64,000 nucleotides of DNA from an uncultured virus (IMG/VR IMGVR_UViG_3300008450_005828) (IMGVR_UViG_3300008450_005828); one strand, 5' to 3'. Positions 1-26,277 are shown, counted from the stretch's first letter. Numbers and translations: made by a program. Notes: a model not told the origin generated them from the sequence alone.

Positions 1-1
1 A

Positions 2-391
2 ATAAAATTTGCACTGCGTCCTATACGTTGGACAGAAACCCACGATGTGTTTGACGACACCGGTCGTTATAGTTTAGATGAACGTGAATTTTTAAAAACA
101 GTAAATCACAATCCGCCTGCAAACACATTAATAGACAAAACAATTGAGTGCAATGTTAACGATCTGTTAGTAAACAAAAACAATCAGTTTAAAGATTGGA
201 TTTGTCGTGCAGGTTTAGAAAGTTTAATGATTAACTGGGACGGCGAAATACATCGTGCAACTTGTAGAGTAGGTGGAAGTTTAGGTAACATTTATAAACA
301 AGAGTTTGCTGTTCCAACAGAAGAAATAACGTGTACTAGAGAATGGTGTACTTGCGCCGCAGATATAAACATTACAAAATGGAAAAAGTAA
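2..391 (+). CDS. Radical SAM family protein, C-terminal part only (5' end lies outside the window)
   Basis: The frame is open from base 2 (IKFALRPIRW...). The C-terminal FKDWIC...C...CTREWCTC motif matches the tails of the complete radical SAM paralogs at 5450 and 17925. Confidence 0.75.
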   Translation: MKFALRPIRWTETHDVFDDTGRYSLDEREFLKTVNHNPPANTLIDKTIECNVNDLLVNKNNQFKDWICRAGLESLMINWDGEIHRATCRVGGSLGNIYKQEFAVPTEEITCTREWCTCAADINITKWKK

Positions 392-1431
392 ACGCTATAA
401 ATTTAACAAAGCCCGAACCGTTTTTAGTCACATGGGATATCGGAAGACGTTGCAATTTTGATTGTAGTTATTGCGAAAGCACTAGACACAATACGTATAG
501 CCCGCCTACAGACTATAATCAACTTATAAAGACATTTGAATTTATAAAAGAATATGTCTCGGTTTACGACTTTAAAGAAGTTAATATAAATTTTACTGGA
601 GGAGAACCTACAGTAAATCCACGTTTCTGGGACTTGATTTCTTACATTAAAACAAACAGTAACTTCGGTGTAGGCATTACTACAAACGGAACATGGCATC
701 CAAAGCATACAGATTTTATATTAAAAAATTGCAACGGAGTAACTGTAAGTTGGCACACCGAAGCAGATGAAAAATTACGTGAACGTGCAATACAAAATGC
801 CATTGCATTACACAATGCAGGGTTATGGGTGTCTGTCAATGTAATGCTGCACACAGACTACTGGGATATTGCTGTAGATGCATACAATCGTTTAAAAAGT
901 GCAGGAGTAAATGCTGTACCAACTCCACTCGGTGACGGTGTTAAAGAACGTACCGATTGGTTTGAAGATAGCGAAGGTGTATTACGCAGAACTGGGCACC
1001 AATATACACCGGAACAATATGCATGGTATTGGAATACTCAAGGAATTGCCAAAGAAACCAGCGATGCTGTTTTAGCAGGATCTAGTTTAGGAAGAGGTTG
1101 CTGTGGAGGCAGATGTCTAGTAGGTAAAACAGATACATGGAAATCAGTTTCGATAGTAGATAATCATTTTAAAGATTGGTTTTGTAAAGTAAACTATTAC
1201 TTCCTTCATATCGAAGAACATACTGGTAATGTGTATCATCATCAGACCTGTCAAGCAAAATTTACAGGAAGAGGACCTATCGGTACTTTAGATAATACTG
1301 ATGCTATATTATCAATGGTTAAAAATTATTTAAAAAATCCTCAACCAATTGTTTGCCCAAACGAGCGTTGTGGCTGTGGTGTTTGTGTTCCTAAAGCAAA
1401 AGAATATTCGGACTATTTGTTGTTAACTTGA
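379..1431 (+). CDS. Radical SAM protein with C-terminal Cys-rich auxiliary (SPASM/twitch-like) domain
   Basis: CNFDCSYC, FTGGEP, TNG motifs; C-terminal CCGG...WFC...CPNERCGCGVC. The ATG at 379 is preferred over 343 because it overlaps the upstream stop region. Confidence 0.9.
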   Translation: MEKVNAINLTKPEPFLVTWDIGRRCNFDCSYCESTRHNTYSPPTDYNQLIKTFEFIKEYVSVYDFKEVNINFTGGEPTVNPRFWDLISYIKTNSNFGVGITTNGTWHPKHTDFILKNCNGVTVSWHTEADEKLRERAIQNAIALHNAGLWVSVNVMLHTDYWDIAVDAYNRLKSAGVNAVPTPLGDGVKERTDWFEDSEGVLRRTGHQYTPEQYAWYWNTQGIAKETSDAVLAGSSLGRGCCGGRCLVGKTDTWKSVSIVDNHFKDWFCKVNYYFLHIEEHTGNVYHHQTCQAKFTGRGPIGTLDNTDAILSMVKNYLKNPQPIVCPNERCGCGVCVPKAKEYSDYLLLT

Positions 1432-2456
1432 TCCACAGGTTTACTAAATGTGTTGCCACATGCTCTAGCACAGGTCCATAATTTTTTAATGTTCCAATAT
1501 TTTTGCCATACAGTTTGAAACGAGTTTGATTCAATTACTTTTTGAATGCCTTGTTTAGCGTCGGTATTACCTAAGTCATAAATCAAATCACTGTATTGTT
1601 TTTTTATGTGTTGTTTTGCTGCAAATAAATTATCAGTAGTTCTCTCATAATCATATGGTATGGCTGCTAAAAAACAACAAGGCATAATACGCTTGTGAGC
1701 ATCAATATAAATTTCTTTTTTATGTTTAGCATAACAAACGATTTCAGTGTTTTGAATTGTTTCGCTAACTGCTACAATATCCGTTGGATCAAAATAATTA
1801 ACTTTTGTTATTGCTGGCGGATATAATCGATCAATTGTTTTTTCATTTTTATCTAACACAATGTATTCTTTTTCAAAGGCAAATCTACTGCTGTCTTTTG
1901 TATAAAATTTTTCAAAACCAATTTTTTCTGCAAGGTCTCGTGCTTGATCTACTTGATGTTCATTATGCTTAAATCTAATAAAACTCCATTCTGCTATACC
2001 GCCAGCATCGATAAAAGCAGTTGCATTATCAAGAATTTTTCTAAAATCTGTTCCTCTACGATAAACAGAATGTGTGTCTTCTAAGCCGTCAATTCCAAAT
2101 ACTACTCTATGATCAGGCAAATGCTGCGGTAAGATTTTCCAAAAATCTTGACTGCGTAAACTTCCGTTTGTATGTATGTCAGCAAATACGTTAAAGTTTT
2201 TTAAATAATCTGTCATTAAATGAAAATCTTGATTAATTAATGGATCGCCAAAGTTACCACAAAATTCAATCTTTTTAATTATGTTTAGTGTATTGCTATC
2301 TAATATTTCTTTAAAGTCGTCAATGGTCCAATCTGAGATTTGTAATAAAGGATTATCTATGCTTCCTCTATAATTTCGACTGCACATTGGACAACTGGCC
2401 TGGCATCTATTTGTAATTTCTAAATGAATACTTTGTAGTTCATCATATCTAAACAT
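1413..2456 (-). CDS. Radical SAM protein with C-terminal twitch-like domain
   Basis: CQASCPMC, CGNFGDP, HTNG, GIDG motifs; C-terminal C...PCC...CARAC. Confidence 0.9.
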   Translation of the reverse strand: MFRYDELQSIHLEITNRCQASCPMCSRNYRGSIDNPLLQISDWTIDDFKEILDSNTLNIIKKIEFCGNFGDPLINQDFHLMTDYLKNFNVFADIHTNGSLRSQDFWKILPQHLPDHRVVFGIDGLEDTHSVYRRGTDFRKILDNATAFIDAGGIAEWSFIRFKHNEHQVDQARDLAEKIGFEKFYTKDSSRFAFEKEYIVLDKNEKTIDRLYPPAITKVNYFDPTDIVAVSETIQNTEIVCYAKHKKEIYIDAHKRIMPCCFLAAIPYDYERTTDNLFAAKQHIKKQYSDLIYDLGNTDAKQGIQKVIESNSFQTVWQKYWNIKKLWTCARACGNTFSKPVDQVNNK

Positions 2457-2461: not shown

Positions 2462-2481
2462 TATTTATTGTACAGTAAATA
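2462..2481. promoter_or_regulatory. Back-to-back TAAATA late-promoter-like motifs
   Basis: TAAATA on minus (2462-2467) lies 5 nt before ATG 2456; TAAATA on plus (2476-2481) lies 4 nt before ATG 2486. Both resemble the T4 late promoter TATAAATA. Confidence 0.6.
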
Positions 2482-2485
2482 TAGT

Positions 2486-3244
2486 ATGAACGAAGCAGAA
2501 TTATTTTTTGAAAAAAATAGAATTTATAATTGTAAACTTAATTCGTTACCCAACGACAATATGAATGACGAAGACATTGCATTATGGGTGTTGCAAGGTA
2601 GTCACGGAGACTGGTTACAACTAGATCTTGATATTGATACGCTAGACTTTATGTTTGACGAAAGATATGCTGCAACAAGTTACGTGTCACACCGAGACGA
2701 AAAGACCGGCGAAGGCACACATCAAGGATGGTCAAGTTGCACACTTCACGGCATTGATGTTGAAAAAACCAATCACTGGACCACATACGGATATAAGTCT
2801 GAACCCGAATATCAATGGACCTACTTAGGTAAAAAAACTACAAAAATAAAAAAGTTTTGTGAATCGTTGCCTTTTGAAAATTTGTCAAGAGTAAGATTTA
2901 TGAAACTAGGTCCCAAAGGATACATTTCTCCACACAACGATCAAGGGTCCGGAATAGACTGGGGACAAATTTGGAATCACCCACTGCCGATTAATATTGC
3001 TATAGATCACCCACCAAACTGTTTTATGACTATTGAGGATTCTGGTGTGGTACCATTTAACAACGGCAGAGCATTTTTAGTTAATATCTTGAAAAATCAT
3101 TCTGTTATAAACTTTAGTTCAGACGAACGTAAACATCTTATTGTTCACGGCATTGTGGGCGATCGCAAAGAGGATTATTGCAAACTATTAGCAGACAGTT
3201 ATAGGAAAGCATATGCTTTACAAAGGGAAAAACTCAAAATCTAA
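2486..3244 (+). CDS. 2OG-Fe(II) oxygenase, aspartyl/asparaginyl beta-hydroxylase-like
   Basis: RVRFMKLGPKGYISPHND carries the HxD motif; distal HSVIN...RKHLIVHG. Confidence 0.75.
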   Translation: MNEAELFFEKNRIYNCKLNSLPNDNMNDEDIALWVLQGSHGDWLQLDLDIDTLDFMFDERYAATSYVSHRDEKTGEGTHQGWSSCTLHGIDVEKTNHWTTYGYKSEPEYQWTYLGKKTTKIKKFCESLPFENLSRVRFMKLGPKGYISPHNDQGSGIDWGQIWNHPLPINIAIDHPPNCFMTIEDSGVVPFNNGRAFLVNILKNHSVINFSSDERKHLIVHGIVGDRKEDYCKLLADSYRKAYALQREKLKI

Positions 3245-4424
3245 TATTTGTATTTGTATTATAGATGATACTGATGAATACAAACCTTGGATGCGAGAAC
3301 TAGTTAAAAACACTGCTGACTATACAATTACAAATTGTACAGGATTTGGCTATGATGTTTATGTTGACGTCAACGAAGACCGTATGCTTCAACAGGTTGC
3401 TGACAACTATAAAGTTGCTGTAGTAATAAGTGCCGGAACAGAATTTATAAACGGTAGTGATTTTTTTGATAATTTACCCAGTGACTTTTTCTTGTTAGCG
3501 CATATCATAGACATGGGCGACAGTTATTACGGACTACACTATCAATGTTATGTTTTAAATTTAAAAAAATACAGAGAACTGGGTAAACCCGGTGTAGGTA
3601 AAACTGAATTACTGGATTCTCATACGCAGGAAGTACCATACAGATCTGCTGAAAACGTACACGACGACTATTTACCCATAGTATTGCGTAAACACATACT
3701 TAATAAAACACAGGTATACAAAAGTAAGTACCGCGGATGGAATTTGATCGCTGCTGGTTTACAGGCCGGACATGAAATATGTGCGTTTGATGAAAAATTA
3801 AGAAGCAGTAAACATTATCTATATCGAGACGTTGATACCAGTTCGTGGATTTATCATAGATATAACTATTGTTTAACACATCACACATTTAAGGAAAATA
3901 CAGGTAATTTAAATTTTCCAAGACCTTATAAAAAACCTATCACACAGTTTGTACATCCTGCGGCTGGAATAGACTGGTTTCACAAATTAATGCTGCACGG
4001 TTACAAAGACGAAACTGTGATTAAGTTTTATGATTACAATTTACGTGCGTTAGATGAAATGCGTGAACGTGTAAAAGACATGCCCTATCATCATTTTGAA
4101 TTTCATCACATTGACGCAATTAACGATGTTGAGCAGTTTGTAAAAATTATAGACACTGCCGATCCAGAAGGAACAGTTGTTCATATGAGTAATATTTTTG
4201 CATATGAAGGTACTGCGTCTTTGTTACCATTAAAATATCGTATAGAAAAAGAAAATTATCTAATATCTTGGATGCAAAAAAATATGCCTGATGCTGTACT
4301 AGATTTTGATCAACGGGCTGCCGAAGGTATTGTTCCGTGGCGTTTGGAATCTGGAATGGCTAAAGATTTAGTATTAACTGATTGGAATGCTATCAGTTTA
4401 CCGTCTTGGCATACTTACGATTAA
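3213..4424 (+). CDS. Hypothetical protein (403 aa)
   Basis: Long ORF overlapping the oxygenase gene; no confident motif. Confidence 0.75.
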   Translation: MLYKGKNSKSNICICIIDDTDEYKPWMRELVKNTADYTITNCTGFGYDVYVDVNEDRMLQQVADNYKVAVVISAGTEFINGSDFFDNLPSDFFLLAHIIDMGDSYYGLHYQCYVLNLKKYRELGKPGVGKTELLDSHTQEVPYRSAENVHDDYLPIVLRKHILNKTQVYKSKYRGWNLIAAGLQAGHEICAFDEKLRSSKHYLYRDVDTSSWIYHRYNYCLTHHTFKENTGNLNFPRPYKKPITQFVHPAAGIDWFHKLMLHGYKDETVIKFYDYNLRALDEMRERVKDMPYHHFEFHHIDAINDVEQFVKIIDTADPEGTVVHMSNIFAYEGTASLLPLKYRIEKENYLISWMQKNMPDAVLDFDQRAAEGIVPWRLESGMAKDLVLTDWNAISLPSWHTYD

Positions 4425-5463
4425 TTTCATCAAACAGTTCTTTTGTTGCTGCTTTAGGAGCACAAAGTCCACACCAACATTTAGATTTTTTGCAAACTAT
4501 TGTATCTGTGCCTTTTTTTATTTTTTCCAAGATTGCTTGTGTATTTTTTAAGTTTCCAATAGGGCCAACTTGCCCGTCAAAATTCATTCTACAATCTTTA
4601 TTTGTAAAAACTTCACCGGTTGTTTGTCTGATATATAAAAAGAATCGGTCAACTGAACAATGCCATCCTTTAAAGTTGTTGCCTTTAACATAAGTTGTGG
4701 TATCGCAACTATTAGAGCACAAAGTTTTACCGCCGCAACAAGCACGACCTGTGGCATCTAAATTAAATCCACCAGTAAAAACTGCTTTAATTTTTTCTGT
4801 TGTTGTAGAAGGCTTTTTACCTGTAATATATTCTGCTTGTTGGTCAGTGTAGTTAAAACGTGTATCAAACCAATGATGGTCGATTTGTCTTTTATGCACT
4901 GTAAATGTTCTTTGATTTGCCCAATCAACTAGTCTTACACATCTATCCCAATAGTTAGGATCCATCATAACATTGATTTGAAAATTTTTGCCGACTGATT
5001 TTAAATAAAGACAATTATACTTAAACATCAAATGAAATTTTGTGTGTGAAGAAGCATGAAAACTCATTGTAGCATAATCAATGTATTGTACAATTTTTAT
5101 CCACTTTGCAGTTGAACAAGAACCGTTTGTTATTAGTGCAACACGCATTGTCCAACTGTATTGACTTTTTTTGCTGTTTATGTATTCTAATATTTCAACA
5201 ATGTTTGGATGAAAAATACTTTCGCCGCCTTGAATGTTTAAATTTGCTTCTCGATATTGATCTGTTTTAGTAGACATTATAGTATCTACATAATCGAATA
5301 TAAAATCTACAGTTTTTAAACTGTCTTTAAGGCTAGGATGCGACTGACTGTTGTCGTGGCCGTCGCCGCAGTATGCACAATCAAAGTTGCATTTTAAAGT
5401 GGATTCCCAAGCAATTTGAAATATTCCGTCAGTAACAGGCTCTAATGTTTCAAAGGTTATCAT
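4393..5463 (-). CDS. Radical SAM protein, paralog of 379..1431
   Basis: CNFDCAYC, QGGES, TNG motifs; GRACCGG and FKGWHC...CKKSKCWCGLC. Confidence 0.9.
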   Translation of the reverse strand: MITFETLEPVTDGIFQIAWESTLKCNFDCAYCGDGHDNSQSHPSLKDSLKTVDFIFDYVDTIMSTKTDQYREANLNIQGGESIFHPNIVEILEYINSKKSQYSWTMRVALITNGSCSTAKWIKIVQYIDYATMSFHASSHTKFHLMFKYNCLYLKSVGKNFQINVMMDPNYWDRCVRLVDWANQRTFTVHKRQIDHHWFDTRFNYTDQQAEYITGKKPSTTTEKIKAVFTGGFNLDATGRACCGGKTLCSNSCDTTTYVKGNNFKGWHCSVDRFFLYIRQTTGEVFTNKDCRMNFDGQVGPIGNLKNTQAILEKIKKGTDTIVCKKSKCWCGLCAPKAATKELFDEINRKYAKTVN

Positions 5464-6430
5464 TGCTTATCCACTTTTTTAAAATTATTTCACCGTTGCA
5501 ACCGCAAATAGACTTTGTGCATACAACAGGTAAAATGTCAGGGAAAAATGTTTTGTCAAAATTTGGCTCGTACAAGTTGTGATAAGTATCCGAGCCAAAC
5601 AATTTTTGTTGACAGTTTCCTGTTATTCTGCCATCATAAAAGATTTTTAACAAATCAACACCTAGATTACAATTCCAATCTTTGAAATAATTTAGTTTGT
5701 TTAAGGTTAGATAACTGTCAGACGTTGTAGTAACAACTGTATTGCTGTTGTTTGTAATATAAACTTCTGTCCTGGGTTTTTTAACTGTTGCAGCAAACCA
5801 TTCTTTGCTAGGATATCTTTTTATAGGTTCAATAAAGTATTTTTGTTGTTCTGATGTATATCGACTTTCGCCGTTGTAATGTACAACTTTAGCAAGAACA
5901 GGCCATGCACATTTACTATCAGATAAGTCTTCAACTAGTTTAACACATTTTTCAAACGCGGCAGGATCCATCAATACATCAACATTAACAAAAACTCCTA
6001 GTTCATATAAAAAATCTGCTAGGGTTTTTATCTTTTGTATTCTTGCATATTCATGATGCACACTAATATTAACATGGTCTAAAACTCTGCCTGCCTTGGT
6101 CCACCATATTACACCGCGAGTTCCGTTGGTGCTAATTTCAAGTATACACTTATATTTTGATTTTAGATATTCGCAAAGTGGCAAAAAACCGTCCCAGAGT
6201 GTTGGTTCGCCGCCTACAAAAAATATATTAAAAACTTCTTTGCCATTTTTTTTGTAATAATCTAATAGATGAGATAGATTTTTCTTAACAGTTTCAAAGT
6301 CGGGCCACGGATGATCGCCTTCGTTACTGCCTGGAAAGCAATAATTACATTTTTGATTACAAGTGTTTCCTAACATATACTCTATTCGTAATACGTTGGG
6401 CTGCTGGTTGTTTTCTATTTTTACAATCAT
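5450..6430 (-). CDS. Radical SAM protein with C-terminal Cys-rich domain
   Basis: CNQKCNYC, GGEP, STNG motifs; FKDWNC...C...CTKSICGC. Confidence 0.9.
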   Translation of the reverse strand: MIVKIENNQQPNVLRIEYMLGNTCNQKCNYCFPGSNEGDHPWPDFETVKKNLSHLLDYYKKNGKEVFNIFFVGGEPTLWDGFLPLCEYLKSKYKCILEISTNGTRGVIWWTKAGRVLDHVNISVHHEYARIQKIKTLADFLYELGVFVNVDVLMDPAAFEKCVKLVEDLSDSKCAWPVLAKVVHYNGESRYTSEQQKYFIEPIKRYPSKEWFAATVKKPRTEVYITNNSNTVVTTTSDSYLTLNKLNYFKDWNCNLGVDLLKIFYDGRITGNCQQKLFGSDTYHNLYEPNFDKTFFPDILPVVCTKSICGCNGEIILKKWISNDNL

Positions 6431-7821
6431 AGTAAATGTGCTAATTCAGGAAACACTTCACGAGCGTTTATTTTTCTTATTGAATCTAGTTTATTTACGT
6501 ATTCCTTAAATGACGGAAGTAAATGTGATTGATCTTCAGCATACATATGATTTAACATACCTTCCCAACGACGCCATCCGTACGGATTACCCTGCCAAAA
6601 ATCACTGCTATTATGATTAACTTCAAGCCAACCTTTAAACCGCATAAAACTGTCTTTTATCTCATCTTTGTCCGCTTTGGGTAACATTTGTATACTTAAA
6701 AAAGTAGGAATGTATAATAGATGCATATTAACAAGGCCGCCGCCTACTTCAATGTCGTTGTTGACTTGTTTATTAACTTTTCTAAAATTGCTAGATAGTT
6801 TCCAATAGATAAAATCTGGAAGATGTTTAATATTAAAAATTTGTACGGCTGTTGCAATCGATGGCTGAATATTATCCGGAGTATTATCTAACATATGCAG
6901 ATTTTTTTCAACCTTACTCCAGTCAGTAGGAAATCTAATATAGTTATTACGTTTACCTACTGCATCAATGCTAACACCAACTTTTACAAGTTTAAAGTGT
7001 TTCCACAGTTCAATTAATTCTTCGTCGACTAATATTCCGTTTGTGTTATAACGCAAGATGATATCATAGTTATAGCCTTGACGTATTATTTCTTCTATAA
7101 ACTTTTTATGTTCGCGAATCATAAGTGGTTCGCCACCAGCAAAATAAACTTCTTTTAAATTAGGAATTTGCTTGTAAAGTTGTTTCCAAAACTCCGGATT
7201 TTCGTGCCATCGGTTATCAAAACTTTCTTTATCCCATTGTAGTTGATTTTTTACTACGTCGTGAGTTATTTGCGGAAATAATTGTTTCCAATCTTTGACC
7301 CATTGACTACTGTCGTGCGGACTGCACATCACGCATTTGATGTTGCAAGTATGACCTAAACGCAAATCAAGATATGCTAGTTTGTTAGGAACACGACCAT
7401 CTGATTTGGTTTCGTTTAAAAGATTTACCGGATCAATACCACGTTCTAACCACGTAGCAGTTTCCCATATTCTTTTACTAGCAACTCCCTTTGATTCTTC
7501 TGAAAAACATTTAGAGCAACTAACTGGTATTTTTTCATCCATCATGGTTTTTCTAACACCGCGCATGTATTCACTGTTCCATGCCTCCGTTGGAGTAGTG
7601 TTAGAAAAATTCAAATGTTCGCCTGTAGCAGTCTTTACAATTCCAAGAGTATGGTCTACACCTGCACCACTTGCATTTGCACTACAACACAATCTCATAT
7701 CGCCATTTGGTCTTGTGGCAAGATGTATCCAAGGCAACACACAAAAAGTTTTAGTAGCACGATCTTCGATAAAATCTTGCCATTTTTTTACTTCAGGATT
7801 TGTTGATTCATACCACGTCAT
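6427..7821 (-). CDS. Radical SAM protein with N-terminal Cys-rich (twitch/SPASM-like) domain
   Basis: N-terminal FCVLPWIH...LCC...CSKC; core DLRLGHTCNIKCVMC, FAGGEP, YNTNG. Confidence 0.9.
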   Translation of the reverse strand: MTWYESTNPEVKKWQDFIEDRATKTFCVLPWIHLATRPNGDMRLCCSANASGAGVDHTLGIVKTATGEHLNFSNTTPTEAWNSEYMRGVRKTMMDEKIPVSCSKCFSEESKGVASKRIWETATWLERGIDPVNLLNETKSDGRVPNKLAYLDLRLGHTCNIKCVMCSPHDSSQWVKDWKQLFPQITHDVVKNQLQWDKESFDNRWHENPEFWKQLYKQIPNLKEVYFAGGEPLMIREHKKFIEEIIRQGYNYDIILRYNTNGILVDEELIELWKHFKLVKVGVSIDAVGKRNNYIRFPTDWSKVEKNLHMLDNTPDNIQPSIATAVQIFNIKHLPDFIYWKLSSNFRKVNKQVNNDIEVGGGLVNMHLLYIPTFLSIQMLPKADKDEIKDSFMRFKGWLEVNHNSSDFWQGNPYGWRRWEGMLNHMYAEDQSHLLPSFKEYVNKLDSIRKINAREVFPELAHLL

Positions 7822-8423
7822 TTGTAGCCAATAATTAAAAATCTGTTGTAAAGAGGCAATTCTAATACATCTTTACAAAGTATGTTGTTTAACTGTGATG
7901 AATCAGCAAAGTCATCAACAGTATCAAAAGTTCTTATATGTTCGGGTAAACTATGATAGTTGTTGTTTTGTATTACAACTAATGTGTCTTTGGGAACATT
8001 GCTTAACCAAGTATTATATTGTTCTTGAGTAATATGTTCTGTACTAGTGTTAATTACAATAGACGGAATTTCTTGATACTGATAAACAGACATATCTGCT
8101 GTTACTGCACAAAATCGATTTTCTATTTCGTATCGTTTATTAATCATTGCAGCAACTTCTTCGCAGGAAACATCTATATCTAAACTTGTAATGTGTTTTA
8201 TATCGATTGTTGAATTAAAGAGCAGTGCAGATAAGACACCATTCCACCCACCGTGGATTACAACACGATTGTTTTGAGTTTGAACTAATTTAGACAGATT
8301 TTCAATTAACCACACCTTACTTTTTAGTTGTCCTTTCCAAAAACTTTCAAGAACACTGTATTGATTTTCTGCATTTCTAATAGCATCCATCCAAAACGCC
8401 ACATCATCTAAATCAACTTTCAT
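7818..8423 (-). CDS. Class I SAM-dependent methyltransferase-like protein
   Basis: VVIHGGWNG glycine loop, SLDID acidic strand, INTSTEH. Confidence 0.6.
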   Translation of the reverse strand: MKVDLDDVAFWMDAIRNAENQYSVLESFWKGQLKSKVWLIENLSKLVQTQNNRVVIHGGWNGVLSALLFNSTIDIKHITSLDIDVSCEEVAAMINKRYEIENRFCAVTADMSVYQYQEIPSIVINTSTEHITQEQYNTWLSNVPKDTLVVIQNNNYHSLPEHIRTFDTVDDFADSSQLNNILCKDVLELPLYNRFLIIGYK

Positions 8424-11593: not shown

Positions 11594-11595
11594 TA

Positions 11596-11640: not shown

Positions 11641-11644
11641 ATTG

Positions 11645-15827: not shown

Positions 15828-15839
15828 ATTATACCTACA

Positions 15840-15859
15840 TAAATAATTTAAATTATTTA
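15840..15859. promoter_or_regulatory. Perfect 20-bp palindrome carrying TAAATA on both strands, between divergent genes
   Basis: TAAATAATTTAAATTATTTA is its own reverse complement. Confidence 0.55.
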
Positions 15860-15876
15860 ATGTAAGGAGTTTAATT

Positions 15877-17962: not shown

Positions 17963-18887
17963 AGTGACAGTGTTCCTTGCTACAAATTACAGGGTTTAGA
18001 TTAAACTTTAAATTTTCATTTAAGATATTTCCGTGGTTGTTTCCAACTCCACAACTAGCACTGCTAATTTGTCCAATTGGATTGATAAACAGTGCATCAT
18101 CAACCGAACAGCGCCAGCCTGCAAAAAAGTTTTGTCTTGCTGAAATAATCTTATTACTATTTACTGGCTCTACAGAATCTGTATAATGTGCTAAACTAAT
18201 TGCTCGATTTGTTCTGTAAGGTTTGGTTTTACGCATTACAGTTTCAAACTGTGCTTCTCTTAAAAACTTTTCTTTAGCAGGATCAGAGTATTTCCACGGT
18301 CCTGCATTAACACTCATTTCGTCAAATAAAGGTGTCCACTCTAAATTATAGTTCAGCACTTCATTTCTTACACGATTACCAAATTCAACAACTTCCCAAA
18401 AGCGTTCTTCATGCATTAGCATTTTTGTGCAAAGATAATCTACTTTGTCACACAAAAATGCTGCGTTTTCAATGTACCTATCAGGTTTAACATATTCAAT
18501 ATGAAAACTTGCAACTATGTCATCAAATAGATGATAGTGTTGTTCCCAATATCTCAAAGGACGACTTAGATTTGTATTAACTGCAACAGTTAAATTATCA
18601 CCTAATTCCGCTTTTAAGTATTCTGTTAGAGGAATAAAGTTTTCCCAATGTGTGGGCTCGCCGCCGCTGTAAAATATTTTAAAATATCTGTAACCTCTGT
18701 CTTGATATTGTTGAAAGATATTTCTTACATTACGCTTATAAGAATCTAGATTACCATTGTTACGTGATGTACCACTCCAATTACCTGGGTTACAATAACT
18801 ACACTGATAGTTACAAAAATTGTTTACTTGCCAAGTAAGACTCATATACTTGTCTTCGATCGGTGTTATTTTAAATAGTTCACTCAT
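17925..18887 (-). CDS. Radical SAM protein with C-terminal Cys-rich domain
   Basis: CNYQCSYC, SGGEP, NTN motifs; FAGWRC...SC...CSKEHCHC. Confidence 0.9.
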   Translation of the reverse strand: MSELFKITPIEDKYMSLTWQVNNFCNYQCSYCNPGNWSGTSRNNGNLDSYKRNVRNIFQQYQDRGYRYFKIFYSGGEPTHWENFIPLTEYLKAELGDNLTVAVNTNLSRPLRYWEQHYHLFDDIVASFHIEYVKPDRYIENAAFLCDKVDYLCTKMLMHEERFWEVVEFGNRVRNEVLNYNLEWTPLFDEMSVNAGPWKYSDPAKEKFLREAQFETVMRKTKPYRTNRAISLAHYTDSVEPVNSNKIISARQNFFAGWRCSVDDALFINPIGQISSASCGVGNNHGNILNENLKFNLNPVICSKEHCHCGTDIIIPKEKI

Positions 18888-20163
18888 ATTGTTTTAACCA
18901 TGACATTTCAGGAAATACTGCCCAAAAGTTTTCTTTTCTATATCGATCAAGATTATTATTGTTTTCAATAAACTGCTTTAACTTTTCTTTATTCTCTGTT
19001 CCAGTATTCATAAACTGAACTACACTATCAATCTTTCCAATTACATCTTTAATTATTTCTGGCTTGTTCTTTGCTCGATCTTTTATTTTTTCAAATGCCC
19101 AAGATTTATAATCAAGATATTTTGCTCTTAATTCGATTTTAACACTTTCCGGAACGTTGTCAATTCTCATAAAGTCTGGTCCAGTAAGCATATTAAGTCT
19201 GCAATTTTCAATATCAACTAATCCACGCTCAACCCAATCCATGTGAAAGTCCGGCCAGTTCCAGGCATTATAAAGACTGACTGTGGGTGTTAGTTCGAAA
19301 TGTACGTGAGGTACACGTTCTAACATTTCTTGTCTGTTACGTTCAATTGTATTCCATACTGTTCCGTGTCTAGAATATTCTGCTCTATAACCATTACAGT
19401 CAAGGCTTGCGCTGACTTGAATGTCTGAAAATTCTTGCCAATAGTCTATAATAGACTTTTGCTTGTATCTAAAATTACTAAAGTTAGTTGTATATCTTAG
19501 ACGAACATCACGCTTGTTATTTTCTAGCCAATAGTCAAGAATTTGATAATGTTCGTCTGTGATAAGTGCTTCTCCGCCTGCAAAATATACTTCTTCAATG
19601 TCAGGCAAATACTTTGTTAAGTCATTCCAAAAGTTATTTTCTTTAGCAATATTAACTACAATCTTGCCATCGTTTTTTAGCATACGAGCAAGTTCGTGTT
19701 CTCCATACAAATCTTTAAATTCTTTGGCATGTTGACTGCTTAGTTCAGGTCCACAACTGCGACACTTCATATTACAGATATTTGAAAAACGTATGTCTAA
19801 GTATGCCATGCGAAATTCATCAATACTGCCGTCGTCTTTTGTTTTTTCTACCAAGTCAAAGTGTTTTTCACCAAACCAATGGTTGTGATTTTTTCTTAGC
19901 GTCCAAATATAAGTACTATCTTCGAGTTCATAACAACGGCTACATACATCAAGTTTTTTGCCTTCCAGCATCGCCAAACGCAATTCTTTGTATTTTTCGC
20001 TGTTCCAAACTTCTTCAATACTGTTGTCTTTTAAGTTTCCAAACGGTTGTGTACTATCGGAAATACAGCAAGGCATTGCGTTGCCATTTGGCCATACGTG
20101 CATGTGAATCCAAGGTAAAATACAAAATGCCCGATTCTTCTTTAATAATTCTTCTTTATCCAT
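18880..20163 (-). CDS. Radical SAM protein with N-terminal Cys-rich domain
   Basis: FCILPWIH...PCC...CSRC; DIRFSNICNMKCRSC; FAGGE. Confidence 0.9.
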   Translation of the reverse strand: MDKEELLKKNRAFCILPWIHMHVWPNGNAMPCCISDSTQPFGNLKDNSIEEVWNSEKYKELRLAMLEGKKLDVCSRCYELEDSTYIWTLRKNHNHWFGEKHFDLVEKTKDDGSIDEFRMAYLDIRFSNICNMKCRSCGPELSSQHAKEFKDLYGEHELARMLKNDGKIVVNIAKENNFWNDLTKYLPDIEEVYFAGGEALITDEHYQILDYWLENNKRDVRLRYTTNFSNFRYKQKSIIDYWQEFSDIQVSASLDCNGYRAEYSRHGTVWNTIERNRQEMLERVPHVHFELTPTVSLYNAWNWPDFHMDWVERGLVDIENCRLNMLTGPDFMRIDNVPESVKIELRAKYLDYKSWAFEKIKDRAKNKPEIIKDVIGKIDSVVQFMNTGTENKEKLKQFIENNNNLDRYRKENFWAVFPEMSWLKQYE

Positions 20164-21382
20164 TTAACATTTCACTCAATTCTGGAAACACACTTGTAAA
20201 ACTTTCTCCACGAATTTTATCACGTCTTTGTGTATGATGTGTAAACTGTTCGCGTTCTTTATCCCATTCGTCTGTTTGATTTGTAAATCTAATAGCATCT
20301 TGAATATGCATTGCTTGATACCAATCTCCAGCAATCATAAAATCATGCAAATCATTTAATTTGTCTGTTCCAAATTGCTTGATAGATTTTGGTAAAATTG
20401 TTGCAGCATAATAAGAAGGAGTTAACGCTCTATAGATGCTAATCATGTCTTTTTTACGCAACAGATCTTTTTCAATAAGATAGTTATAAAATTGATCGAG
20501 TGTTGCATAATTAAAAACACTTAGTACTGTGTTGTACTGATAGTCAATGTAATCTAAGTCTCTAATAGACTTTAAATTAGATTCTACAACAGCCCAGTCT
20601 GTTCCGTGACGTATATATTCAGCACGTTCTCCGTAGTGATCAATACTTGCTGAGATTTCTACACGCTTAAATCTACTCCAAAGATCAAGTACGTTGTATT
20701 TTTTATATTTAAAATTACTCATATTAGTATTGTAACGAAGTGTAATATTTTTGTTTACACCTTTGCGAATCATTTCTTCAAGAATTATATAATGTTCTTC
20801 TGTAATTAGTGGCTCGCCGCCAGCAAAGTATGCTAGATCAATATTTTCAACTTGATTTTTAATTTCTTCTAAAAGTTGACCTGTACTATCGGCGTGATTT
20901 ATAATTCTATAATCTTTGCTAACTGCTTCGTGTTGCTTCATTTCTTGAGCCCATTGGCTGGAAAATTCTGCACCACAAGTACGACACTTCATGTTACAGA
21001 TGTTAGAAAATCTTACATCAAAGTATTTCATAGAAAATTGTGGCATACTTCCGTCACTGTTTGTTAAAGTAACTAACTCATCAAAGTCTTTGCCAAAGTG
21101 TTCTATACTATATTTCCTAAAACTAAACGGCGAACTTTCTTCGTGTTTGTAGCAGTATGTACAAATTTTATTATTTTTGTCAGACAACATATCTAAACGC
21201 AATTGCTTCATTCGGTCATTATTAAAAATTTCAGCAAGTGAAGCATCTTTAACGTTAGCAAAAGGATCTGTATAATCAGAACTACAGCAAGGATAAACAT
21301 TACCTAGCGGAGTAACATTGAGATGTATCCACGGAAACATGCAAAACGTTTTGCTCTTGTTTAATAAGTAATCTTTATCCAT
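20156..21382 (-). CDS. Radical SAM protein with N-terminal Cys-rich domain; close paralog of 18880..20163
   Basis: FCMFPWIH...PCC...CTYC; DVRFSNICNMKCRTC; FAGGEP. Confidence 0.9.
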   Translation of the reverse strand: MDKDYLLNKSKTFCMFPWIHLNVTPLGNVYPCCSSDYTDPFANVKDASLAEIFNNDRMKQLRLDMLSDKNNKICTYCYKHEESSPFSFRKYSIEHFGKDFDELVTLTNSDGSMPQFSMKYFDVRFSNICNMKCRTCGAEFSSQWAQEMKQHEAVSKDYRIINHADSTGQLLEEIKNQVENIDLAYFAGGEPLITEEHYIILEEMIRKGVNKNITLRYNTNMSNFKYKKYNVLDLWSRFKRVEISASIDHYGERAEYIRHGTDWAVVESNLKSIRDLDYIDYQYNTVLSVFNYATLDQFYNYLIEKDLLRKKDMISIYRALTPSYYAATILPKSIKQFGTDKLNDLHDFMIAGDWYQAMHIQDAIRFTNQTDEWDKEREQFTHHTQRRDKIRGESFTSVFPELSEMLNG

Positions 21383-22757
21383 TTGCTGCTTGCTTACACA
21401 GTTGGAAAAAATCGTTCATTTCAGGAAAAGTAGATTCAAAATCTATGTTACGTCTACGATCTTGTTCTTTAAAGAAATTCCAAAAGTCTTTTCTACCTTC
21501 GTGTATTTTTTCAGGAGCATATTCTGTGCTACGCATGTAATCAACTACACGTCTAAACTTTTCATATTCAAGTTCACTAAAATGAACTTTGCTACCTTCT
21601 TGAACGTTGTCTTTGATAAACTGTAGATGCTGTTCCATATACTGCATATATCGTTCTTTAGGAAGAATATTGATGTCGTATTGTAGAGGTTCTTTTAAAT
21701 AAGGTGTATCAAAATGAATACGCTGCCAACGACTGCTTTCAACATCGTTGTATTTACGACGCCATTCGAGAATTTTTTCAAGCAGAGTTTGAAACGTAGT
21801 TACACTAAAAATATTAAACGTAATCATAAATGTAACTGGAGCAGTTGTATTACGCAAAAAATAATCTAAGTTTCTTTCAAATACTTCTATGTCAAGGCCA
21901 TCACGAATGTATTCAGCACGTTCATTCCAAGTGTCAACACTTGTAAATAACTTAAATTGTTTAATCTTATTTTGAGATAGCAAACTGTTTACAGCATCAG
22001 TAAACTTTTCAAGTTGACGTTCTTTGCCGCCAAGGTTGCTGTTGACGTTTAGTTCGAGATTGGGCTTAGGATCTTGCTCTAGTAAATCAAATAGTTTGTA
22101 TGTACTTTTTTGAATTGTTGGTTCGCCGCCAGTAACACGTAAAATGTTCAGAGTTTTACTAACCTCCGGCCACCATTTCCACCAAGCATGAAGATAAGGA
22201 TTGTTATCTTCATCATAGACTTTAAACCAGTCAATGTCACAGCGATGATTGTTTACCATATCATACGGACCGTGCTGTCGTATTTCATTGTGAAAGCGGC
22301 TACTGGCCTTAGGATGGCAATATCCACAACGGAAGTTACATTCGTTACCAAATGAAATTTCAATATACTCAGGATTTACGTTAAAGTCCCAAGGATTAAA
22401 TTTAATTTCTTGTAGACGTTGTTCGTTATAGATACTAGCACTGCGTATGTGTCTATCACTTACGTAGTCTTTGCCCATATTTTCAATGTTCCAGCAATAT
22501 TGACAACCTTTTGGTTGTTTGCCCTCGAGCATTTCTCTACGCTCTTGCTTTTTTTGCTGTGTATTGTGTAATGCACTAGGATTGGTTAACAATTCATCTA
22601 CTGAAATTTTGTGAGGGGCAGGATGATAACAACTGTGTGTTTCTCCAGTTTGCAAATAAATTGTTGTATGATGCCATTTAGCAAAACAAAATGTTGGGCT
22701 AAAATGTCGTGTAGTAACGTCGTTTACATTTTTAATGTAATCCTGTGTTTTTGACAT
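21375..22757 (-). CDS. Radical SAM protein with N-terminal Cys/His-rich domain
   Basis: FCFAKWHH...SCYH...CQYC; CNFRCGYC; TGGEP. Confidence 0.9.
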   Translation of the reverse strand: MSKTQDYIKNVNDVTTRHFSPTFCFAKWHHTTIYLQTGETHSCYHPAPHKISVDELLTNPSALHNTQQKKQERREMLEGKQPKGCQYCWNIENMGKDYVSDRHIRSASIYNEQRLQEIKFNPWDFNVNPEYIEISFGNECNFRCGYCHPKASSRFHNEIRQHGPYDMVNNHRCDIDWFKVYDEDNNPYLHAWWKWWPEVSKTLNILRVTGGEPTIQKSTYKLFDLLEQDPKPNLELNVNSNLGGKERQLEKFTDAVNSLLSQNKIKQFKLFTSVDTWNERAEYIRDGLDIEVFERNLDYFLRNTTAPVTFMITFNIFSVTTFQTLLEKILEWRRKYNDVESSRWQRIHFDTPYLKEPLQYDINILPKERYMQYMEQHLQFIKDNVQEGSKVHFSELEYEKFRRVVDYMRSTEYAPEKIHEGRKDFWNFFKEQDRRRNIDFESTFPEMNDFFQLCKQAANG

Positions 22758-23686
22758 TAATCTTCTCTATCTATGAACTGCTGATTAGTAGTTCTTGCTG
22801 GGTTTTGATAAACGGTTTTAAAGAATTTACTTTGATCTGCTTCTAGTGGATATGCTGCAATCGGCAAATCTAGAACTGGAATAAGTACGTCTGCTAAGTC
22901 TTCACACTTACGAACAAGATTTTCTTCGTCTACTTTTTTAGTAACAGTGTTTTCCCAATACTCATTTAGCCAATCAAAGTCACGAACATTTACATAATCC
23001 CAGTCAGTAAGCATGGTTTTATAAAGGCCTTCTCTAGCACCGTATATGCCCCACATACCGTTCTCAACATCTGCGCCAACCATGAGCCAAATATAAAGTC
23101 TGTGTAGATTTTTCCAATGATTCTTTTTAAATGCTTCTACAGTCGGCTTGACACCACGGTCCAGTGCCATTTTAACACCTTCTCTAAATCCTGCACGCCA
23201 TGCTTGTTGCGGTGTAGCGTTGTTGTAGATTTCACTATAACAACTGTTCATTTGGATATATTCAAGATCCCAGCAAAAATCTACCTGTGCATGTGGATTG
23301 TTAGGATCTGCGTTTTCGTGTGTACGCATGTTCAAAACATATTCTTTTGGCCAACATTTTAGGCCGCCATTGCCATACATTAATCCATTAATTGTATTAC
23401 GGGCAGTCCAACTAATAACACACTTTTCTAGATCTCTGTTTTCGTCAAAATCAAATTCTTTTGTAAGAAATTCTTGGCTGATAACATTATCGCCGTCGAC
23501 TGTGATGAATCTGTCAGTTTCGCTTAGTCTAGCACAGGCTTTGTGTGCAGCATCACTGCCTTTGACACCATGTACACGTTTTGCCCATGGAATTTTTTTA
23601 CACAAGTCTGCATAATTTTTTTCAGCGTTTGGCTCGTCATATGACAAATAAATTATATCATAGTCAAGCACTCTAAATTTACCCAT
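22757..23686 (-). CDS. Putative GT-A fold glycosyltransferase
   Basis: DIIYLSYDE strand, AHKACA helix, FITVDGDN (DxD). Confidence 0.55.
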   Translation of the reverse strand: MGKFRVLDYDIIYLSYDEPNAEKNYADLCKKIPWAKRVHGVKGSDAAHKACARLSETDRFITVDGDNVISQEFLTKEFDFDENRDLEKCVISWTARNTINGLMYGNGGLKCWPKEYVLNMRTHENADPNNPHAQVDFCWDLEYIQMNSCYSEIYNNATPQQAWRAGFREGVKMALDRGVKPTVEAFKKNHWKNLHRLYIWLMVGADVENGMWGIYGAREGLYKTMLTDWDYVNVRDFDWLNEYWENTVTKKVDEENLVRKCEDLADVLIPVLDLPIAAYPLEADQSKFFKTVYQNPARTTNQQFIDRED

Positions 23687-24263
23687 TTAATACCTCATGC
23701 GAATATGTTTCTAGACGTTTTATAGTATATACACTTAATGCGTTTGGGTCAAGTTCTATTTGGTTTTCAAAGTCAATATGTAAATCTTGTTCAATTAGTG
23801 AATTCAATTCTATAGTTAAAAACTTTTCCAGTTGATGTGGGTCGTTGTATCGTGTAAAACTAAAGTTAAGAGATTTTGTAAAAATCATCTTTTTAGATTT
23901 AAAATTATCTCTAATGATTTCATCTAACACAATTGTCCATTTTTTATTAGGGATGTCTTGTATGATTTTGATATCAGTTCTTGCACTACTATTAGGAATT
24001 TTATATATTTGATTGTTTACATCAAACGTAAAATCTTCTTCGTTAAGTTTATGTTTTAATACATAACTTTTAGAAACAGTATCAAACGCTACATAATAAT
24101 GAAAAAAGTGTTCTTTACCAGTAATTAAATTTGCAATGTCTGCAAATTCAACTTCGACATAGTTACCTGGCTCAGTATTAACATTTGATACCGCAGTTAA
24201 ATTACCATCTTCGTCGAAGTAGACATATCGTTTAGTTGAAACATAAAGAATACTTTCAAACAT
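23679..24263 (-). CDS. Hypothetical protein
   Basis: ORF translationally coupled to both neighbours. Confidence 0.7.
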   Translation of the reverse strand: MFESILYVSTKRYVYFDEDGNLTAVSNVNTEPGNYVEVEFADIANLITGKEHFFHYYVAFDTVSKSYVLKHKLNEEDFTFDVNNQIYKIPNSSARTDIKIIQDIPNKKWTIVLDEIIRDNFKSKKMIFTKSLNFSFTRYNDPHQLEKFLTIELNSLIEQDLHIDFENQIELDPNALSVYTIKRLETYSHEVLNG

Positions 24264-25095
24264 TTAAATATCTTTCATAAATTTTTATAACATCATCTGT
24301 AACAAAATCTTTTTCTGTATAATGAAATATTCCGTTTTGCTTGTAATTTCCAATTTTTAGATCAAGATCATTATCTAAGTATACACCTACTTTGTCTTGC
24401 CACCGTTCACTGGTTAAGATTTTCCAATCTTGTGTATGGATCTTCATATGAGTAAAATGCGGATATGTTGCTTTGCTTGTAACACGCTCCTCACAGTCTA
24501 GTATCTTAGTTACAATTGCAGCACTAATATCTACACTGGCAAATTTTTGAAAATACTTTCCACCTGCATATTGTCCATAAAACAGTTCCCAGTTGTTCAT
24601 CACTAACTCAAGCCATTTATAAAAGTTGTGTGCTTCGTCGCTTTTTTCAAAGTAATGAAATCCACTGTATAGATTGGGCAGTTGATGATTTCTAAATGCT
24701 TTACGATAATAGATGCTAGTTAAAGGAGTTCCTCTATAGGTTTTTACGTTAGTAGTAAAAAATATCTTATAGTTTTTTAGAAAATTCCACCAATGCTCGA
24801 CATTTTCAAGTACTAACATATCAGTATCTATCACAATTGTACGGTCATACGGTGTAGCATGATAAATTTTCCACCGATTTTCTACTTTCCATTCTGATGA
24901 CTGTGCAGAATCTTCCCAAGGAATACTAACAATATCATCGAACACTGCTGAATGTTTTTTGTCAAGTGTGTCGTTGGTAATAAGACAAATTTTACTGTCA
25001 GGATTGGTAGCACGAATACTTAATGCACACAAGTATGCTTGTTTTACATAGTTGTGTGTGCTGTTCTGTGCAAGCATTGTAAAATTAACTGTCAT
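24256..25095 (-). CDS. GT-A fold glycosyltransferase (GT8-like)
   Basis: ALSIR, TPYDRTIVIDTDMLV (DxD), NLYSGFHYF, SVD, HFTHMK. Confidence 0.65.
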   Translation of the reverse strand: MTVNFTMLAQNSTHNYVKQAYLCALSIRATNPDSKICLITNDTLDKKHSAVFDDIVSIPWEDSAQSSEWKVENRWKIYHATPYDRTIVIDTDMLVLENVEHWWNFLKNYKIFFTTNVKTYRGTPLTSIYYRKAFRNHQLPNLYSGFHYFEKSDEAHNFYKWLELVMNNWELFYGQYAGGKYFQKFASVDISAAIVTKILDCEERVTSKATYPHFTHMKIHTQDWKILTSERWQDKVGVYLDNDLDLKIGNYKQNGIFHYTEKDFVTDDVIKIYERYLNV

Positions 25096-25933
25096 TGTCT
25101 ATTACTCTACCAAGACTAAACTTATTCATAACATGAACGTTGCTGTTTTTTATTTTTGTAGGAAAGTATTTTCCTGCTTCGTTTTCTTTTTCTAATAAAA
25201 TTAAAAAATTTTCATTGTTGATTTCAACTAACAAGTCTCTGTCAATTGAATAATACATTGTACCCGGCATTGGTTTAGCAAAGTCACCTGCTTGAAATCC
25301 GTTCATCATATGAATTGCTATACTAAAAGCATGATCATTTCTAAAAACACTTGTGCGTATTTGATAAAGATTTCGATAATGTAACCAATTTTCTTGTATG
25401 TGTTTTATTAAGTTAAAAAAAACTTTATTAGTTTCTGTTTTTCTAAAAAAAACTGCTGTTGCCCAGTAAAAATTTGGACCAACTTCGCTGATAGAGTTAA
25501 ATTCTGATACATCTCTCCATCCGGCTAAATCAAACGCATCTTGATAAATTAAAAAGTCATGTGCTTGTGTAAAACAATTAGACAATAAATTATTTGCAAT
25601 TATAAAATCTGTATCAAGTAGGAGTGTTTCGTTGTAAGGAGTTAAATCAAATACACTGCTTCTACTTGTATTTTTAAATTCAAGATTTTTTCTAGTCCAA
25701 GATCCGTCGTAGTATTTTTTATATGTATATGAAGATTCTTTTTCTAGTTCAATAACTTTATCAAACACAGACATTGAATCTGTGTATCTTTCATTAAGAT
25801 ATTGTACATTGTCTGTTATAATACTAACCGGTAAGTTTAAGTAATTTTTAATACGCTTTGCCGAAAATACTGCTTGTTTTACATAATCAACTTCGCTGTT
25901 ATTTCTTGCGATAAGCAAAACACCTTTGCTCAT
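25085..25933 (-). CDS. GT-A fold glycosyltransferase-like protein, paralog of 24256..25095
   Basis: DYVKQA, TPYNETLLLDTDF (DxD), FRND.AFSIA, HVMNK. Confidence 0.6.
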   Translation of the reverse strand: MSKGVLLIARNNSEVDYVKQAVFSAKRIKNYLNLPVSIITDNVQYLNERYTDSMSVFDKVIELEKESSYTYKKYYDGSWTRKNLEFKNTSRSSVFDLTPYNETLLLDTDFIIANNLLSNCFTQAHDFLIYQDAFDLAGWRDVSEFNSISEVGPNFYWATAVFFRKTETNKVFFNLIKHIQENWLHYRNLYQIRTSVFRNDHAFSIAIHMMNGFQAGDFAKPMPGTMYYSIDRDLLVEINNENFLILLEKENEAGKYFPTKIKNSNVHVMNKFSLGRVIDNDS

Positions 25934-26277
25934 AAATCGATTATACCTTCAACTGTTCTGTTGCTTTTTAATTTGTTGTATTCAATTAAATATTTGTTGG
26001 TTGCTGCAAAGTAAACACCAACGATACTTTTGGTAAATTCAAACAACTCTTCAATTTCTACTGGTATTCCGTTATCATCAACTAGGATTGTTTCAGTTTG
26101 CTTTAAAGCAATAAGTGCTTGACAGAAACTAACTAACTCTTGTTTTACTGTAAACTGGCCACCGTTGAAATAATATACAATATCATTTTGATATTGTTCT
26201 TTTAAAACACGTTTTTGATTGTTTAGTGTGATCATATAATTACTAAAATCAAGTGCTTGTTTTAGTTTTTCGTCCAT
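25930..26277 (-). CDS. Hypothetical protein, first gene of the GT/radical SAM operon
   Basis: AGGAG RBS; stop overlaps the next start. Confidence 0.7.
   Translation of the reverse strand: MDEKLKQALDFSNYMITLNNQKRVLKEQYQNDIVYYFNGGQFTVKQELVSFCQALIALKQTETILVDDNGIPVEIEELFEFTKSIVGVYFAATNKYLIEYNKLKSNRTVEGIIDL

Follow-up and report, generated by a model that had tools for sequence, protein, structure and literature searches.

The 64,000-nucleotide DNA stretch analyzed here (the window) comes from the uncultured virus IMGVR_UViG_3300008450_005828 and covers positions 62001 to 126000 of a 138,039-bp linear viral contig. Our analysis revealed a gene island next to the tail fiber operon in which a fixed core with glycosyltransferase (GT) genes is followed by a variable set of tailoring genes. 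The core comprises a 115-amino-acid (aa) open reading frame (ORF), two GT8/glycogenin-like paralogs, a 194-aa ORF, and a GT-A transferase, all behind Ser/Thr-rich genes of the fiber operon, and the variable part contains radical S-adenosylmethionine (SAM), GT-B, nucleoside diphosphate (NDP)-sugar, aminotransferase, amidinotransferase, and oxygenase genes. We propose, with a probability of about one half, that the island encodes a cytoplasmic pathway that glycosylates virion proteins with radical-tailored sugars, the neighboring Ser/Thr-rich fiber-operon proteins being the probable acceptors.

The contig carries T4-like capsid, portal, and baseplate genes and late sigma genes. Its capsid protein is 65 to 72% identical to those of Rak2/GAP32-like jumbo phages and 86% identical to that of a complete 357-kb environmental relative (G001). 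These structural genes and identities mark the contig, judged by sequence, as a fragment of a jumbo myophage distantly related to the Rak2/GAP32-like phages. ORFs are named by their window coordinates (w), and genome coordinates refer to the whole contig.

Core genes and their linkage to the fiber operon

The fiber genes and the core occupy the following window positions:

28360-33652, minus strand: three tail fiber/collar-type virion proteins
27401-28330, minus strand: Ser/Thr-rich (26%) paralog of the next protein, with a late-type TATAAATA upstream; candidate acceptor
26335-27363, minus strand: Ser/Thr-rich (30%) fiber-operon protein; candidate acceptor
26300-26328, minus strand: sigma70-type promoter-like site (TTGACA, 17 nt, TATTAT) ahead of the core operon
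25930-26277, minus strand: core 115-aa protein; nearest named family DUF4376, a lead only (0.90, 169/256 features; a second check gave no support)
25085-25933, minus strand: core paralog of w24256 with a DxD motif (hhalign, 99.6%)
24256-25095, minus strand: core glycogenin/GT8-like glycosyltransferase (glycogenin, E 2e-7)
23679-24263, minus strand: core 194-aa protein (ORF351 in Ralstonia phage RsoM2USA)
22757-23686, minus strand: core GT-A (GT2-like) glycosyltransferase with a DxD motif
21375-22757, minus strand: N-terminal twitch radical SAM protein directly after the core, homologous to RsoM2USA ORF349 (NF033640, 311 bits)

A first-pass annotation of the window had described the island as abutting the fiber operon, and the gap between the two is indeed only 57 bp. 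It had also set a check beforehand, namely, whether relatives keep this arrangement, and the linkage proved to be conserved from two independent anchors, w22757 and the structural gene w33655. Searching for loci with w22757 gave 246 candidate stretches, of which 244 were confirmed and 80 were kept (25 of the 80 are distinct). In these 80 loci the gene order runs, on one strand, from the fiber genes through one or two Ser/Thr-rich genes to the homologs of w25930, w25085, w24256, w23679 (ORFs of 175 to 213 aa), and w22757. This core order is constant, members being absent at locus edges only. In 71 of 79 loci the gene directly after the core GT encodes a radical SAM protein, and gene content beyond it is freely shuffled. 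Because the w22757 anchor is biased, the linkage test was repeated from w33655, which gave 80 loci; 28 were too short and were dropped. Among the 52 evaluated loci, the Ser/Thr gene is present in all 52 and the GT8 pair in 46. In the other six the DNA ends at most about 450 bp from the Ser/Thr or the 115-aa gene, so that every evaluable locus (46 of 46) has the pair.

Among 50,697 phage records, w33655 is found in 93, and w22757, w24256, or the Ser/Thr-family domain is found only in RsoM2USA. ORF347 to ORF355 of this phage, all annotated as hypothetical, form a minimal core with one twitch radical SAM gene and one methyltransferase-like gene; ORF355 joins a fiber-type N terminus to the Ser/Thr-family domain, and the region contains neither amidinotransferase nor polyamine genes. 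A tie between the island and the "hairy" Rak2-like morphology was ruled out, since phages CBB, GAP32, and Atu_ph07 have w33655 yet show no match to the core or the Ser/Thr genes. The cultured jumbo Vibrio phage K566 (locus L189, 155-180 kb) has a radical SAM cluster that includes twitch-like proteins and gave no GT-core match.

No homology was detected between the Ser/Thr family and w28360, only unnamed viral clusters matched w27401 in Atlas, and sequence profiles of w22757, w25085, the TEK family (see below), w25930, and the Ser/Thr family gave no meaningful match in the PDB. A literature search, made without subscription papers or supplements, returned no account of the GT core or of a function for such islands. 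Rfam had 0 matches within the window. Beyond the fiber genes lies a 4622-aa virion protein (window 34287-48155, minus strand) with CBM5/12 and FG-GAP matches.

Glycosyltransferase folds and tailoring enzymes

The rest of the island within the window is laid out as follows:

20156-21382, minus strand: N-terminal twitch radical SAM protein (NF033640, 383 bits)
18880-20163, minus strand: N-terminal twitch radical SAM protein (NF033640, 384 bits)
17925-18887, minus strand: radical SAM protein with a C-terminal Cys cluster
17195-17962, minus strand: SGNH-like protein, DUF6071 (E 1e-10)
15877-17226, plus strand: TEK-family GT-B candidate
15036-16055, minus strand: SGNH-like candidate, its true start probably downstream of the first codon of the ORF
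14082-15062, plus strand: amidinotransferase nearest StrB1 (inosamine-phosphate amidinotransferase)
13282-14061, minus strand: SGNH-like candidate (G-C-S motif, conserved His)
12712-13299, plus strand: short 195-aa DegT-type pyridoxal phosphate-dependent aminotransferase; cyanophage S-SCSM2R has the same short form (52%)
11645-12688, minus strand: TEK-family protein, modeled as a GT-B fold
10517-11593, minus strand: TEK-family GT-B candidate, 41% identical to its neighbor
9540-10451, minus strand: NDP-sugar epimerase/dehydratase of the short-chain dehydrogenase/reductase (SDR) type (PF01370, E 2e-39)
8413-9561, minus strand: GT10-like GT-B glycosyltransferase candidate, TEK family (PF00852, E 4e-4, below cutoff)
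7818-8423, minus strand: putative class I SAM-dependent transferase; its family includes RsoM2USA ORF347 of the minimal core
6427-7821, minus strand: N-terminal twitch radical SAM protein (NF033640, 390 bits; cutoff, 170)
5450-6430, minus strand: radical SAM protein with a C-terminal Cys cluster
4393-5463, minus strand: radical SAM protein with a C-terminal Cys cluster
3213-4424, plus strand: 403-aa protein with no family match in library scans
2468-3244, plus strand: 2-oxoglutarate (2OG)-Fe(II) oxygenase, Asp/Asn beta-hydroxylase-like (PF05118, E 5e-8)
1413-2456, minus strand: radical SAM protein (library match) with a late-type TAAATA motif upstream
343-1431, plus strand: radical SAM protein with a C-terminal Cys cluster (PF04055, E 2e-16)
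1-391, plus strand: C terminus of a 298-aa radical SAM protein (genome 61495-62391; PF04055, E 4e-15)

The seven putative GTs of the first-pass annotation are all present but fall into three families rather than two, and both of those modeled, w22757 and w11645, have the GT folds that had been named beforehand as a check. Glycogenin is a GT8 enzyme that primes glycan synthesis on protein. The w24256 profile matches glycogenin over residues 3 to 105 (E 2e-7), with D90 and D92 invariant; among the GT8-like members, PF01501 was found in 1 of 35 (E 0.004) and PF11051 in 2 of 35. The w22757 model (predicted local distance difference test [pLDDT] score, 87) has a GT-A fold with invariant DxD residues D64 and D66. 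Its best Foldseek matches are the peptide S-glycosyltransferases SunS and ThuS (SunS, E 1e-5), with WrtF and RmlT also among the neighbors, and it matches a PBCV-1 capsid GT (E 5e-4) and a GT of mycobacteriophage Che8 (E 7e-4). A wide fold search was led by B4GALNT1 (Z 10.4; root mean square deviation [rmsd], 3.0; 136 aligned residues). These matches establish the fold of w22757 and not its acceptor. The family of w22757 has at least 8000 clusters, the best 120 of which are without Pfam assignment.

w8413, w10517, w11645, and w15877 belong to one family (TEK), modeled as GT-B. For w11645 (pLDDT, 93), GT10 fucosyltransferases came first in Foldseek, none of them reaching E 0.001, and PF00852 was found below cutoff in 1 of 33 TEK members (E 4e-4). 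The 51-bp gap at 11594-11644 (minus strand), between two TEK-family genes, holds a 14-codon relic, MKIFLTGASGFIGQ, followed by a stop; this relic differs little from the beginning of the SDR at 10451 and is likely the trace of a duplication or insertion that enlarged the island.

The SDR, the DegT-type aminotransferase (195 aa only), the amidinotransferase, and the 2OG oxygenase are present as first annotated. The amidinotransferase w14082 shows pentein-family homology, with HxD and GGxFHC stretches that align. It scores 222 bits with StrB1 versus 119 bits with Arg:Gly amidinotransferase, is 66% identical to a gene located among GTs in S-SCSM2R (a phage whose corresponding block also has aminotransferase and radical SAM genes), and is one of two StrB1-like copies in the island; this similarity therefore supports a sugar or cyclitol-amine acceptor. 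Two other assignments are weak. The three SGNH-like proteins have motif support (G-C-S and His invariant in 19 sequences), w17195 has a DUF6071 match as well, and the CE16/GDSL matches in the PDB are weak (E 0.3-0.4). The methyltransferase-like w7818 has one weak match, to spermidine synthase (E 0.067).

Extent of the island and its radical SAM genes

The island was said to exceed 26 kb and to continue past the window start. It does so for about 49 kb leftward. At genome 12785-88277, it spans about 75 kb with 78 ORFs (minimum length, 60 aa), almost threefold the extent claimed. The nine complete CxxxCxxC proteins reported in the window (w343, w1413, w4393, w5450, w6427, w17925, w18880, w20156, and w21375) are all ORFs at their coordinates, the partial tenth is the C terminus of the whole 298-aa protein listed above, and 18 further radical SAM genes lie to the left of the window. 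A motif scan thus finds CxxxCxxC in 28 island ORFs. PF04055 matches 27 times in the contig versus 16, 13, 19, and 7 times in four relatives. Thirteen island proteins, 4 of them in the window, reach the 170-bit cutoff of NF033640 (N_Twi_rSAM), with N-terminal twitch cysteines; all told, NF033640 matches number 26 here versus 4 to 21 in 21 relatives, mostly fragments. Two radical SAM proteins have B12-binding domains, and 13 others are non-B12 proteins below the NF033640 cutoff. The N-terminal twitch resembles the BtrN twitch domain (E 2e-6; a similarity of the domain alone). Searches that reach only close relatives gave no confirmed loci of twitch radical SAM proteins in bacterial genome contigs (two single queries) and none in plasmids.

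The best pair of radical SAM paralogs is 44% identical, which rules out recent tandem amplification. Because paralogs do not exceed 44% identity versus 75 to 85% for orthologs in relatives, the sequences indicate old, separately conserved genes, the pattern expected for distinct conserved jobs. AGCT is strongly avoided across the contig (observed/expected ratio, 0.13). The bias is common to island and backbone (0.10 versus 0.15), and the island is therefore long-resident. The avoided sites differ between relatives, which suggests different hosts.

The first-pass statement that phages usually carry few radical SAM genes needs a qualification, as published exceptions have 8 to 12 per genome (the papers cited here and below are drawn on for their accessible parts). 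Campylobacter phages CP220 and CPt10 have 11 to 12 (PMC2853527), the marine T4-like genome TARA_ERS488813_N000010 has twelve, read as serving iron-sulfur (Fe-S) metabolism (PMC5332604), and Aeromonas phage 332-Vera, a chimallivirus, has eight inside a structural/tail-fiber cluster, noted as unusual (PMC12390700). The CP220/CPt10 and TARA sets have been interpreted as auxiliary metabolism, and the widely variable gene content of the island could likewise mark a zone where auxiliary metabolic genes for host Fe-S or low-oxygen metabolism accumulate with no joint pathway. We consider this very improbable given the fixed core order, the position of the radical SAM gene after the core GT, and the overlaps between ORFs, for the coupling described in the first pass is present at 9/9 junctions from 26277 to 17195 and at 5/5 from 10451 to 4393. 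Moreover, in the family library scan no island radical SAM protein scored above cutoff for any named housekeeping equivalog.

The island is bordered on the left by a Mtd_N-containing fiber-like gene and a subtilase (genome 9511-12710), and a Mtd_N gene likewise borders a 33-kb island with 13 radical SAM genes in G001. The far left end (genome 12785-20050) holds ornithine/diaminopimelate-decarboxylase-like, AMP-ligase, adenine-nucleotide-hydrolase-like, saccharopine-dehydrogenase-family, and nitroreductase genes; we presume that the saccharopine-dehydrogenase-family gene may encode a homospermidine synthase. A cold-shock domain is fused to a 2OG-Fe(II) oxygenase at genome 55390-56265, which by its domains is a possible nucleic-acid-directed oxygenase.

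Could these genes instead make a free small molecule, aminocyclitol/aminoglycoside-like or polyamine-linked, that inhibits host defense or translation or is freed at lysis? The two StrB1-like amidinotransferases, the BtrN-like twitch domains, the B12 radical SAM methylases, and the ornithine decarboxylase-like, homospermidine-synthase-like, and AMP-ligase genes would all suit such a product, and the S-SCSM2R authors termed three such genes "antibiotic synthesis genes" in the accessible text. We nevertheless give this explanation little chance: it is the GTs that are invariant, amidinotransferase and polyamine genes being optional (the RsoM2USA core region has neither), and neither an exporter nor a cyclitol synthase turned up in library scans of the contig. 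The free exchange of tailoring genes would also better suit a tolerant surface structure than a molecule fitted to a target.

Candidate acceptors, expression, and cellular location

The Ser/Thr fraction has a median of 0.12 across 112 ORFs and is highest in w26335 (0.30) and w27401 (0.26); no terminator-like site was found between the core and the fiber genes. Of 27 island operon heads, 13 are preceded by the late-type TAAATA motif (shuffles, 4.4; maximum, 11), compared with 9 of the 21 structural and 2 of the 11 other heads, which suggests that much of the island is expressed late; the reverse-complement control gave 14/27, a value confounded by divergent gene heads that share gaps.

The maximal hydropathy (19-residue window) exceeds 1.8 in only 1 of the 78 island ORFs, the AMP ligase (2.28). 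With one strongly hydrophobic segment among 78 proteins, the chemistry of the island is most simply placed in the cytoplasm. This bears on the proposal that the island remodels the host envelope, where cytoplasmic nucleotide-sugar or lipid-linked intermediates would alter lipopolysaccharide (LPS) or capsule, causing superinfection exclusion or less adsorption to debris. The GT8, GT10, and DegT families work in LPS and O-antigen synthesis, and the accessible part of the S-SCSM2R report interprets a GT cluster in which w12712 and w14082 have homologs as serving to modify the cell wall. However, the near absence of hydrophobic segments leaves no flippase, polymerase, or membrane GT evident and makes a host-surface target less likely, and the linkage to fiber genes would go unexplained. 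In addition, the core is nearly absent from cellular genomes, with 2 loci on contigs of 153 and 335 kb from one Neomarinimicrobiota metagenome-assembled genome, which are probably binned phage DNA. Hence, we regard envelope remodeling as improbable.

Possible DNA modification

Another explanation is DNA hypermodification, in which oxygenases or a deazaguanine pathway would provide a base handle, GTs would add sugars, and radical SAM enzymes, aminotransferases, and amidinotransferases would elaborate them to block restriction or CRISPR (clustered regularly interspaced short palindromic repeats) immunity. The wide fold search of w11645 was led by T4 DNA beta-glucosyltransferase (BGT; Z 11.6; rmsd, 4.6; 255 aligned residues) ahead of FUT11 (Z 9.8), with T4 AGT at Z 9.2. 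The island contains several 2OG-Fe oxygenases and a QueC-like gene, QueE is located at the contig start with FolE just beyond it in a near-identical contig, and the core has a sigma70-type promoter-like site. In close relatives, a cluster left of the contig start (L091:618-10765, L088:191-1808) encodes a 521-aa TGT-like protein, GalE, FolE, and QueE, together with putative QueD-like and GT-like ORFs labeled by eye, and lies near the DNA polymerase; its genes could constitute a 7-deazaguanine system for DNA modification that has a separate sugar step.

This separate cluster, with its own putative GT and GalE, speaks against DNA as the target of the core. The TGT-like gene matches 19 phage records, all without the core, and has no match in the core-bearing RsoM2USA; its distribution is thus independent of the core, an argument against a role of the core in that DNA pathway. 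Furthermore, library scans found no thymidylate-synthase-type hydroxymethylase or nucleotide kinase family among the island ORFs, the core tracks the Ser/Thr fiber genes, and the core GTs, for which alone isoelectric points were computed, are acidic (5.2-6.6). We therefore judge DNA hypermodification to be unlikely. Palindrome avoidance was rejected as a test of DNA modification because it does not discriminate: T4 avoids GATC (0.37) and CP220 avoids CATG (0.02). The DNA of T4 is modified. That of CP220 is modified as well, according to the accessible part of its report.

Proposed pathway

Gene context favors a virion target, and we infer the catalytic steps and the acceptor from the observed gene content, folds, and linkage. 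We hypothesize that the GT8-like pair primes hydroxyl groups of the protein and that the GT-A enzyme would extend the chain. The SDR, the DegT-type aminotransferase, and the StrB1-like amidinotransferase would supply amino- and guanidino-sugars. Enzymes of the BtrN/NeoN type perform radical chemistry at sugar C-H positions; the twitch radical SAM proteins could similarly oxidize, epimerize, or deoxygenate such positions, and the two B12 radical SAM proteins could C-methylate them. GT10-like enzymes might then add side branches, and SGNH-like proteins might add or remove acyl groups. Exchange of the variable genes would alter the coat, as in O-antigen loci, and the composition of the sugar chain is likely to vary by strain. 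The 75 kb may hold more than one pathway.

Several points weigh against this proposal. The glycan, its acceptor, and the activities are predictions from sequence, and the GT-A fold matches of w22757 are generic (template modeling score, ~0.3) and include nucleotidyltransferases; the lead of T4 BGT over FUT11 for w11645 counts here as well. No glycan pathway known to us has as many as 28 radical SAM genes, and a simple glycan would not account for the polyamine/AMP-ligase block at the left end. Among 41 distinct relatives, 24 have a sigma70-type site ahead of the core operon and 5 have TAAATA there; with a promoter-like site of its own and rarely TAAATA, the core is not simply the late tail of the fiber operon. 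Ser/Thr richness is not unique, reaching 0.24 in T4 virion proteins (gp48) and 0.20 in RsoM2USA ORF355, and ORF355 is not among the ten virion bands named in the accessible part of the RsoM2USA report.

A more far-reaching version of virion glycosylation, which we advance only tentatively and hold to be doubtful, is that a jumbo-phage lineage, aquatic and widespread, has a serotype-like glycan locus. Glycogenin-like priming of Ser/Thr-rich virion proteins would be followed by up to 28 exchangeable radical SAM enzymes and by amidino-, acyl-, and polyamine-related transferases to give a hypermodified coat of guanidino and C-methyl sugars.

Comparison with known systems

We know of no function for the NF033640 family. 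It is a family defined by sequence, to which 13 island proteins belong and which stands here beside 15 other radical SAM proteins and a GT core. In mycobacteriophages, virion glycosylation depends on a few GTs. By analogy, the working mode of the island would be most like this system and the fibril-glycosylation clusters of the Megavirinae. Mycobacteriophages such as Che8 encode soluble GTs (PMC12619734), and in structure the Che8 GT weakly matches w22757, with no kinship seen at the sequence level; unlike the pathway proposed here, their glycans are on capsid and tail tube and no radical SAM tailoring is described in the accessible text. The moraphages of the same paper are another lineage. 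The Megavirinae have virus-encoded, clade-specific clusters of 6 to 33 genes for rare amino-sugars and GTs (PMC10117803). However, their hosts are eukaryotic, their glycans were measured, and the available part of that paper names no radical SAM arsenal.

In CP220 and CPt10 (PMC2853527, FN667788), a swappable block likewise combines two GT-A-like genes and an amidinotransferase (25-29% identical) with five radical SAM genes, but 12 CP220 proteins tested gave no match to the GT8 pair, w22757, or the TEK profiles, and their module is smaller, with no function assigned. For 332-Vera, the difference is that the GT core was not matched in its record collection outside RsoM2USA. T4 DNA glucosylation and DpdA-type 7-deazaguanine modification are similar in the GT-B fold, which is like that of T4 BGT, and in the FolE, QueE, and TGT-like genes of the lineage; they differ in that no base-handle enzyme family was matched in the island and that the deazaguanine cluster and the core occur independently of each other. 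New here are the extreme of 28 radical SAM genes, a layout of fixed core and variable tail that holds from an independent anchor, the link to glycogenin, the promoter split, and a minimal core in a cultured phage.

The minimal core, RsoM2USA ORF347 to ORF355, shrinks a 78-gene puzzle to about nine genes. If our proposal is correct, virion glycosylation would be a basic trait of a jumbo-phage lineage that is abundant and uncultured, and not a rarity of mycobacteriophages or giant viruses. The NF033640 family would gain a substrate class, with dozens of new radical sugar-tailoring enzymes, and an explanation would be at hand for the phage modules rich in radical SAM genes that have been described since 2010 with no function. 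Should the serotype-like version hold, it would mean radical sugar chemistry at a scale unknown in any glycan pathway.

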